Shown here in pieces: positions 8,308 through 8,496 of a stretch of 64,000 nt of DNA. The notes under the pieces were generated by a model, which was not told the origin of the DNA, ran no database searches, and was given only the letters and a program-made list of their open reading frames with translations. Position numbers and translations under genes: made by a program. The stretch's first letter is position 1. Every line of letters starts with the position of its first letter. The DNA is from an uncultured Clostridia bacterium. GTDB taxonomy: Bacteria; Bacillota; Clostridia; TANB77; CAG-508. The stretch spans positions 96 through 64,095 of the forward strand of contig CANQCW010000002.1 in NCBI GenBank assembly GCA_947591055.1, written 5' to 3'.

Positions 8308-8496
8308 ATTAAGTTAAAAGCTTAATAAAAAATTAAGATATAAAAAATATAGCATAGTAAAAGGATAAAATCAAGAAAATAAGAATAAAAAAATATATAA
8401 CAATTTGATAAAAATAAAAAAGAAAAAATCTTGTAAAAAGCTTATAAAAAGCTGATTATAAGATTTTTTTAATTTTTATTAATCTTTTAACTTAAT
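8308..8496. promoter_or_regulatory. putative invertible promoter element (inverton) 2, OFF orientation
   Basis: Inverted repeats 8308-8331 / 8473-8496 are 23/24 complementary and flank 141 bp. The core holds a minus-strand promoter, TTGATT (8374-8369)-17-TGCTATATT (8354-8346), and a terminator-like hairpin at ~8423-8470. Confidence 0.6.

Follow-up and report, generated by a model that had tools for sequence, protein, structure and literature searches.

A family of predicted invertible promoters with paired spacer changes in front of pilin-like genes of uncultured gut Clostridia

The stretch of DNA analysed (64,000 nt, hereafter the window) is chromosomal DNA of 26% GC from a spore-forming Firmicute and holds pheT, a GH57 gene, recG, the hrcA-grpE-dnaK-dnaJ cluster, gerA and spoIIP. 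Three of its genes, P1 (nt 7035–8162), P2 (nt 8534–9403) and P3 (nt 14473–15123), each lie directly downstream of one element bounded by inverted repeats. Switch 1 (nt 6807–6999, plus strand, spacer GTAAAAA) stands upstream of P1 and has arms of 27 nt (nt 6807–6833 and 6973–6999) that are 100% complementary. Its paralogue upstream of P3, switch 3 (nt 14246–14440, plus strand), also has the spacer GTAAAAA and arms of 100% complementarity. Switch 2, the subject of this study, lies between P1 and P2. Inverted repeats with at least 23 of 24 positions complementary and 100–200 nt apart occur at exactly 3 loci in the window, and at none in 30 dinucleotide-preserving shuffles of it.

The arms of switch 2 had been drawn in a preliminary description at nt 8308–8331 (ATTAAGTTAAAAGCTTAATAAAAA) and nt 8473–8496 (TTTTTATTAATCTTTTAACTTAAT). 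Direct reading of the sequence agrees that they are complementary at 23 of 24 positions and 141 nt apart, and a repeat search lengthens them to nt 8302–8341 and 8463–8502 (40 nt, 85%). In the alignment of the three window elements the left arm of switch 2 differs from that of switch 1 by TG to GT and A to G, as had been claimed, and the right arm carries the compensating changes CA to AC and T to C. The compensation was said to be exact, but the right arm has a fourth and uncompensated change, G to T at nt 8483, which opposite C8321 makes the single mismatch of the 24-nt arms.

Comparison with homologous elements, described below, places a 27-bp site of two 10-bp half-sites and a 7-nt spacer in each arm, a layout common to 59 elements in which the spacer covaries with that of the partner site. 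The left site of switch 2 (nt 8304–8330, plus strand) consists of the outer half-site TTTAATTAAG (nt 8304–8313), the spacer TTAAAAG (nt 8314–8320), which pairs with nt 8484–8490, and the inner half-site CTTAATAAAA (nt 8321–8330). The right site (nt 8474–8500, minus strand) reads TTTTATTAAG-TTAAAAG-ATTAATAAAA on the minus strand, so the two spacers are identical. Over the full 27 bp the outer half-sites differ too, at nt 8307 (TTTAATTAAG versus TTTTATTAAG). Two of the three compensated positions, 8314/8490 and 8320/8484, fall within the spacer. The third, 8313/8491, is the half-site position adjoining the spacer and is a tolerant one, at which the two arms disagree in 29 of the 59 elements, the left arm typically having T and the right arm G. 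The mismatch 8321/8483 affects the base with which the inner half-site begins. Between the sites lies the putative invertible core (nt 8331–8473), homologues of which are reversed relative to arms and gene in two elements, L021 and L052. On inversion the core would travel together with the inner half-sites (nt 8321–8483).

Within the core, a predicted extended -10 promoter of the sigma-A type, TTGATT-17-TGcTATATT, occupies nt 8346–8374 on the minus strand. The hexamers TTGATT (nt 8374–8369) and TGCTATATT (nt 8354–8346) and the 6 differences from switch 1 among the 17 positions between them are all as first described, and the conservation pattern taken as a sign of a functional promoter holds across the 59 elements, with a column identity of 0.98 in the -10, 0.90 in the -35 and 0.65 in the stretch between. 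TGn is present in 59/59 elements, TATATT in 55/59 and TTGATT in 44/59, and the spacing is 17 nt in 58/59. A generic promoter scan of this 26% GC window returned 70 promoter-like matches against 60.7 expected, barely above chance, and the promoter of switch 2 is a prediction drawn only from consensus and conservation. The promoter faces the gene in one orientation of the core only, away from it in the window and towards it in L021 and L052. At switch 2 its direction, read from the sequence, is away from P2 and towards the 3′ end of P1, again as described earlier. On the minus strand between nt 8345 and 8163 no obvious terminator separates this promoter from the 3′ end of P1, into which it would read antisense; in tandem arrays an OFF switch could in this way dampen the upstream gene.

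The other end of the core, next to the right arm, carries an imperfect hairpin with a T-run (nt 8416–8476, plus strand), which resembles an intrinsic terminator, folds on both strands and lies directly before P2. Its folding energy is -21.5 kcal/mol with a z of -7.4 on the plus strand, and z is -5.8 on the minus strand; on either strand, the hairpins that were folded scored far better than their shuffled counterparts (z -5 to -7.4). Compensatory changes occur in 13 of the 18 pairs of the stem, and the T-run follows the hairpin on the strand of the gene. A generic terminator scanner missed the structure because the stem has too few G-C pairs. Beyond the right site a conserved leader (nt 8501–8533, plus strand) with the ribosome-binding site GGAGGGG (nt 8519–8525) precedes the ATG of P2 at nt 8534. 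A weak plus-strand promoter-like pair, TTAACT-17-TATAAA (nt 8488–8516), spans the right arm and leader of switch 2, and switch 1 has a counterpart, TTTACA-18-TATAAA (nt 6988–7010). These pairs at the right arms are without the conserved final T of the -10 and could give basal expression in the OFF state.

The N-termini of P1, P2 and P3 are nearly identical, with a basic leader of 28 residues ending in KG followed by ITLIALVVTIIILLILAG, and their C-termini are unrelated. All 11 family members scanned match Pfam N_methyl (PF07963) at this same place, with 16–19 bits and thus below the cut-off of 21.2 bits, and NCBIfam gave no prepilin match among family members. The leader ends in Gly as noted, and Ala is found at +5, where prepilins usually have Glu. 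The AlphaFold model of P0013, a full-length orthologue of P2, has a pLDDT of 88.4 and shows a long N-terminal helix and a beta-sandwich. Its top PDB match by Foldseek is PilC of Streptococcus sanguinis, a minor type IV pilin of modular build that bears a lectin module (7oa8, E 9.8e-6, probability 1.0), with 378 aligned columns, 10% identity and TM-scores that are low (0.25–0.27), and the next PDB matches are legume and ConA-type lectins. The resemblance to a known modular pilin comes through this model and is to be read with its low TM-scores; both proteins combine a pilin-like N-terminal helix with a concanavalin-A-like lectin domain. We know of no invertible promoter at PilC of S. sanguinis. 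The C-terminal modules of the family are hypervariable and include lectin-like, GLUG and other types. Taken together, these results make 'modular pilin-like adhesins' the most fitting description of the cargo family.

P2 itself is broken. The frame at nt 8534–9403 (plus strand) encodes the N-terminal part of such a protein and is truncated by a frameshift, and the C-terminal part follows in the +1 frame (nt 9384–9764, plus strand), where it aligns to residues 298–409 of P0013. Loss of one A from the AAAA run at nt 9388–9391 would rejoin the reading frame. Full-length P2 orthologues measure 414–418 aa, among them the intact P0009, P0012 and P0013. Other species likewise have orthologues broken into two ORFs near this point, namely P0010 (287 aa plus an ORF of 117 aa) and P0031 (305 aa plus a Laminin_G_3 ORF of 152 aa). 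That the break recurs at one place might be due to silent copies decaying, or to phase variation acting at a second level. P1 stops at an in-frame TAA TGA (nt 8160–8165), after which a further 41 codons in the same frame (…SLRPIVSIDLDESRYSLEKV…) look like the C-terminus of P0100, a full-length relative (region nt 8160–8290); P1 is, to judge from these codons, a truncated copy.

Switch 2 has many relatives. A family protein search returned 1376 relatives, and a search with the conserved N-terminus in one genome per species gave 80 loci, mostly from rabbit-gut MAGs of 'uncultured Clostridia'. A profile built from the three window elements (nhmmer) yielded 59 non-redundant full-length homologues. 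The closest genome alone holds 22 of the elements, and among the fetched loci the number of switches per genome is 15–22 or more. In all 53 elements where it could be judged, a family gene begins 47–228 nt downstream, which indicates that the element is tied to the 5′ end of the gene and does not move freely. Among 89 family genes, 36 have no element detected by the profile (L027, L041, L043, L047, L050, L051 and others), and a scan of those 36 for inverted repeats found arms upstream of seven, including three further OFF members; the diverged members L071 and L083 are among the seven. The remaining 29 genes, mostly in distant genomes (Hadza, mouse and sheep MAGs), have no arms by profile or by inverted-repeat scan. 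In JGI metagenome contigs the pattern TGCTATATT-N(10-18)-TTTTTATTAA-N9-TTAAT had 8 matches, none of which belongs to the family by nhmmer. In all, the family to which switch 2 belongs counts 60-odd predicted switches.

In a related species (L098–L100) a switch and the P2-like gene P0010 are located between the RNase R gene and the gene of a protein of about 2570 aa. The equivalents of these neighbours in the window (nt 47131–49056 and 49113–56822) are separated by only 56 nt, and no family gene intervenes. By this comparison, family copies come and go at different chromosomal sites.

Aligned on the invariant TTAATAAAA, all arms of the 59 elements follow the form TTTTATTAAK - 7 nt - MTTAATAAAA, in which half-sites of 10 bp, one the reverse complement of the other, flank an asymmetric spacer of 7 nt. 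No part of the site varies more than this spacer, which has 14 types among the 59 elements; in the left arm, departures from its consensus at positions 1–7 number 24, 24, 7, 2, 0, 0 and 16 of 59. Yet the spacer is the same in both arms of 57 of the 59 elements, against means of 9.9 expected when arms are re-paired globally and 24.4 when they are re-paired within genomes, and none of 100,000 shuffles reaches 57. Double-sided changes at the spacer columns amount to 23, 23, 7, 2 and 15, and none of these columns has more than one broken pair (RNAalifold and a pair counter). P2-type genes of three species have the spacers TTAAAAG, CTAAAAA and TAGAAAC, each matched in both arms. Two further spacer types, TATATAC and TATGTTA, were seen at L059:3330 and L071:694, and there again both arms match. 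The suggestion that the arms of switch 2 co-evolve, which the preliminary description proposed to check by aligning homologous elements, therefore holds, and can be stated more precisely: what co-evolves is the spacer within a recombination site of 10-7-10 layout.

Paired changes between two arms could also be produced by a long-range RNA stem, and the covariation statistics by themselves cannot separate such a stem from paired DNA sites. However, each arm has its own dyad symmetry (10-7-10), a feature of protein binding; the covariation is confined to the central 7 nt, with the neighbouring position mismatched in half of the elements; the cores of L021 and L052 are flipped; and Rfam holds no family that matches the element. 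An origin of the covariation in RNA structure is hardly credible on these grounds.

The inverted binding elements around an asymmetric overlap of 6–8 bp that characterise the core sites of tyrosine recombinases are found in both arms of the 59 elements, and partner sites share the same overlap, as in lox, FRT and dif, in all but two elements. An identical overlap region is, in the account given in PMC2817482, a strict requirement for most tyrosine recombinases, and in a screen of loxP spacers, variants with different spacers were poorly compatible (PMC1479339). The architecture of the arms thus suggests a tyrosine-recombinase core site, and the matched changes in the 7-nt spacer would mark its predicted crossover region.

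Pfam scans and inspection of the window ORFs of 120 aa or longer, apart from the 2569-aa ORF at nt 49113–56822, revealed no tyrosine or serine recombinase, and phmmer searches with XerD and Hin, run on every open frame of 80 aa or more in the window (that ORF included) and in 103 other loci, gave none either. The enzyme would have to act in trans, like RecV and Mpi, which show that multi-switch systems can have a distant recombinase (PMC5903667). We take the cognate enzyme to be encoded at another place in the genome and, most likely, to be a tyrosine recombinase.

Alternatively, the enzyme might be a serine invertase of the Hin/Gin/Mpi type, with everything else as in the explanation that we favour. 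The cuts that serine recombinases make are staggered by 2 bp and lie at the centre of the site. In the present sites the length is odd (10-7-10), so that the axis of the dyad falls on a base pair instead of a central dinucleotide, and arm identity is held at five variable positions across the 7-nt spacer, not just at 2 bp. Several classic promoter inversions nevertheless use serine invertases, and Mpi serves many loci remotely (PMC5903667); since the searches of the window and the 103 loci found no recombinase, the class is judged from the site. Weighing both sides, a serine invertase is quite unlikely, and a tyrosine recombinase remains the preferred reading.

The orientation of the elements bears on whether inversion takes place. 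In 57 of the 59 elements the orientation is as in the window (OFF). L021 and L052 are the exceptions (ON): between arms that are unchanged, their core runs the other way round, with the hairpin leading and the promoter directed at the gene. The outer half-sites of these two copies retain the left- and right-specific variants of OFF paralogues in the same genome: the left one is variable with T at position 10, and the right one is the canonical TTTTATTAAG. This asymmetry, kept in the flipped copies, argues for a crossover inside the arms and not for reinsertion of the whole element. In L083, a more distant element, TTGATT-17-TGgTATAGT is directed towards the gene, and L083 is probably a third ON copy.

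A rearranged ON-like copy was also noticed at a contig start (L006, nt 1–176). Its -10 and right arm are intact, with the spacer CTAAAAA as in L007, its -35 is altered (CGGATT), and instead of the hairpin it has unrelated sequence, ahead of which a single TTTTTATTAAG half-site stands. It may be a product of deletion or mis-recombination, or an assembly artefact.

Elements of about 195 bp with 27-nt terminal inverted repeats, present in many copies per genome and in both orientations, might also be taken for a MITE-like mobile cassette with an outward promoter that inserts either way. Such a cassette is very unlikely here. All 53 elements that can be judged occupy the same place before a family gene and are followed by the conserved leader, so the element is duplicated along with the 5′ end of the gene. 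The side-specific outer half-sites of the flipped copies fit a flip of the interior only. Moreover, a plasmid collection contains no copy of the element, and the pattern that was run on the JGI contigs has only one match in IMG/VR (L111).

At the loci of the window itself, orientation was compared through exact-protein look-ups for P1, P2, P3, P0010, P0031, P0117, P0138, P0143 and P0131. Switches 1, 2 and 3 are OFF in all the other assemblies examined (five further samples), with no flipped copy, and ten further family loci likewise gave no ON state, all being OFF. The protein downstream of the flipped L052 element occurs in one contig only, and the gene of L021 is cut by the contig end. The preliminary description had looked to different assemblies for both orientations; these exist at paralogous loci (L021 and L052), and switch 2 is OFF in the assemblies examined. 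Because a consensus assembly shows the majority state, uniform OFF neither proves nor excludes flipping at switch 2. ON copies make up 2–3 of about 65 elements, and with so few of them the flipped copies are possibly rare fixed events. The contigs of two independent assemblies (L096 and L097) break at or in the right arm of switch 2 (equivalent to nt ~8470–8482), which was considered as a sign of mixed orientation and rejected; the simplest explanation of the breaks is that arm, leader and N-terminal coding sequence are repeated across all family members.

The main alternative for switch 2 is that it is a decayed relic within a family that is still, or was formerly, invertible, this copy being locked OFF and controlling a pseudogene. 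P2 is split by its frameshift, so that switching ON would yield at best a truncated product, and with P1 stopping at its in-frame TAA TGA as well, switch 2 may control a decaying copy. It is also the only one of the three window elements with a mismatch within the 24-nt arms, and its orientation is the same in all assemblies examined. However, that mismatch lies in a half-site and not in the spacer, at a position where other elements, the flipped L052 among them, use both C and A in either arm; switch 2 has kept its spacer, promoter and hairpin intact; and a consensus assembly would report OFF wherever most cells have the switch in that state. We regard the relic as unlikely. By its anatomy switch 2 qualifies as a genuine, well-formed inverton ahead of a pilin-like gene, and we consider it probable that it is one of a family of invertible promoters that individually phase-vary modular prepilin-like surface proteins in uncultured gut Clostridia, served by a trans-acting recombinase, most likely of the tyrosine type.

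In the mechanism so favoured, the recombinase would bind the half-sites, exchange strands across the spacer and flip the core of roughly 140 bp. In the OFF state seen in the window the promoter would fire antisense into the 3′ end of P1, away from P2, and the hairpin right before P2 would block read-through from P1. Terminator logic similarly contributes to the OFF state of cwpV in C. difficile. After the flip the promoter would be directed towards P2 and the hairpin would lie upstream of the promoter. The compensatory changes in the arms would arise because partner sites need the same spacer, or overlap, for strand exchange; a change in one arm would then be matched in the other by selection, or be copied into it through the heteroduplex of recombination. 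The class of the recombinase, the ON/OFF effect on transcription and present activity at switch 2 are what we infer from the features above.

A further and more speculative proposal, which we hold to be doubtful, is that the natural spacer variants (at least 14) form mutually incompatible, or heterospecific, pairs, so that one recombinase could flip at least 20 switches per genome independently and without cross-recombination, the spacers spreading between the two arms through heteroduplex. If it were true, independent flipping would avoid recombination from switch to switch, which would delete or invert chromosome segments, and the spacers would parallel, in nature, the engineered lox and FRT variants and offer a ready toolbox of orthogonal sites. 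Neighbouring switches gave no support for the avoidance of a shared spacer: of 18 adjacent pairs, 5 have the same spacer, where 6.6 would be expected to (P = 0.23).

Invertible promoters in gut bacteria are already known and well documented. The value of the present family lies in its size, in its pilin-like cargo and in the natural map that it offers of the positions that must match. Our analysis suggests that uncultured low-GC gut Clostridia carry a large contingency-gene system in which dozens of pilin-like adhesin genes have a flip switch each. Its many copies amount to a natural mutational map that separates positions that must match (the 7-bp spacer) from tolerant ones. Such a map predicts the class of recombinase and the crossover region from sequence alone, and through the family the idea of naturally orthogonal spacers becomes testable.

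Several known systems share parts of this design. The spacer variants of lox and FRT, as presented in PMC1479339 and PMC2817482, likewise combine shared palindromic elements with an asymmetric spacer of 6–8 bp and need the same spacer in partner sites. Those variants are engineered, whereas the variants here are natural (at least 14 types) and their incompatibility is hypothetical. The Mpi promoters of Bacteroides fragilis, to the extent that they are treated in PMC5903667 and PMC2268961, are also many dispersed switches for alternative surface structures under a recombinase acting in trans; they differ in that Mpi is a serine recombinase, in that the cargo consists of polysaccharide loci and in the architecture of the arms.

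Among Clostridia, inverton group 139 has repeats of ~26 nt, interiors of ~200 nt, experimentally observed shifts of orientation and a link to tyrosine recombinases (PMC11892184). The likeness is by description and not by repeat motifs, and a recombinase gene is nearby in nearly all members of that group (PMC11892184), whereas none is found here. The RecV switches of C. difficile (cwpV, flgB and others; PMC5903667) are also short invertible 5′ segments of a Firmicute served by one distant tyrosine recombinase. There, seven switches that are unrelated or weakly related control different genes, while here 15–22 or more homologous switches per genome control one gene family, and the arm sequences of the two are unrelated.

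The functionally closest system appears to be the mpl family of Mycoplasma penetrans, followed by the RecV switches and the tyrosine-recombinase-linked invertons of Clostridia. The mpl (P35) family comprises 38 surface-protein genes, each with its own invertible promoter (Horino et al. 2003, as relayed in PMC2268961 and PMC10502178). As far as these accounts describe it, its candidate recombinases are tyrosine (Xer-like) enzymes located near the mpl clusters, in contrast to the loci examined here, which have none nearby; the mpl products are lipoproteins, whereas the host here is a spore-forming gut Clostridia bacterium and the cargo is prepilin-like modular proteins; and the 27-bp dyad sites with variable spacer are set apart from mpl at the level of description and not of repeats. 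On the same accounts, the two systems have in common a clustered family of variable surface proteins, a small invertible promoter for each gene, and switching of each gene ON and OFF independently of the others.
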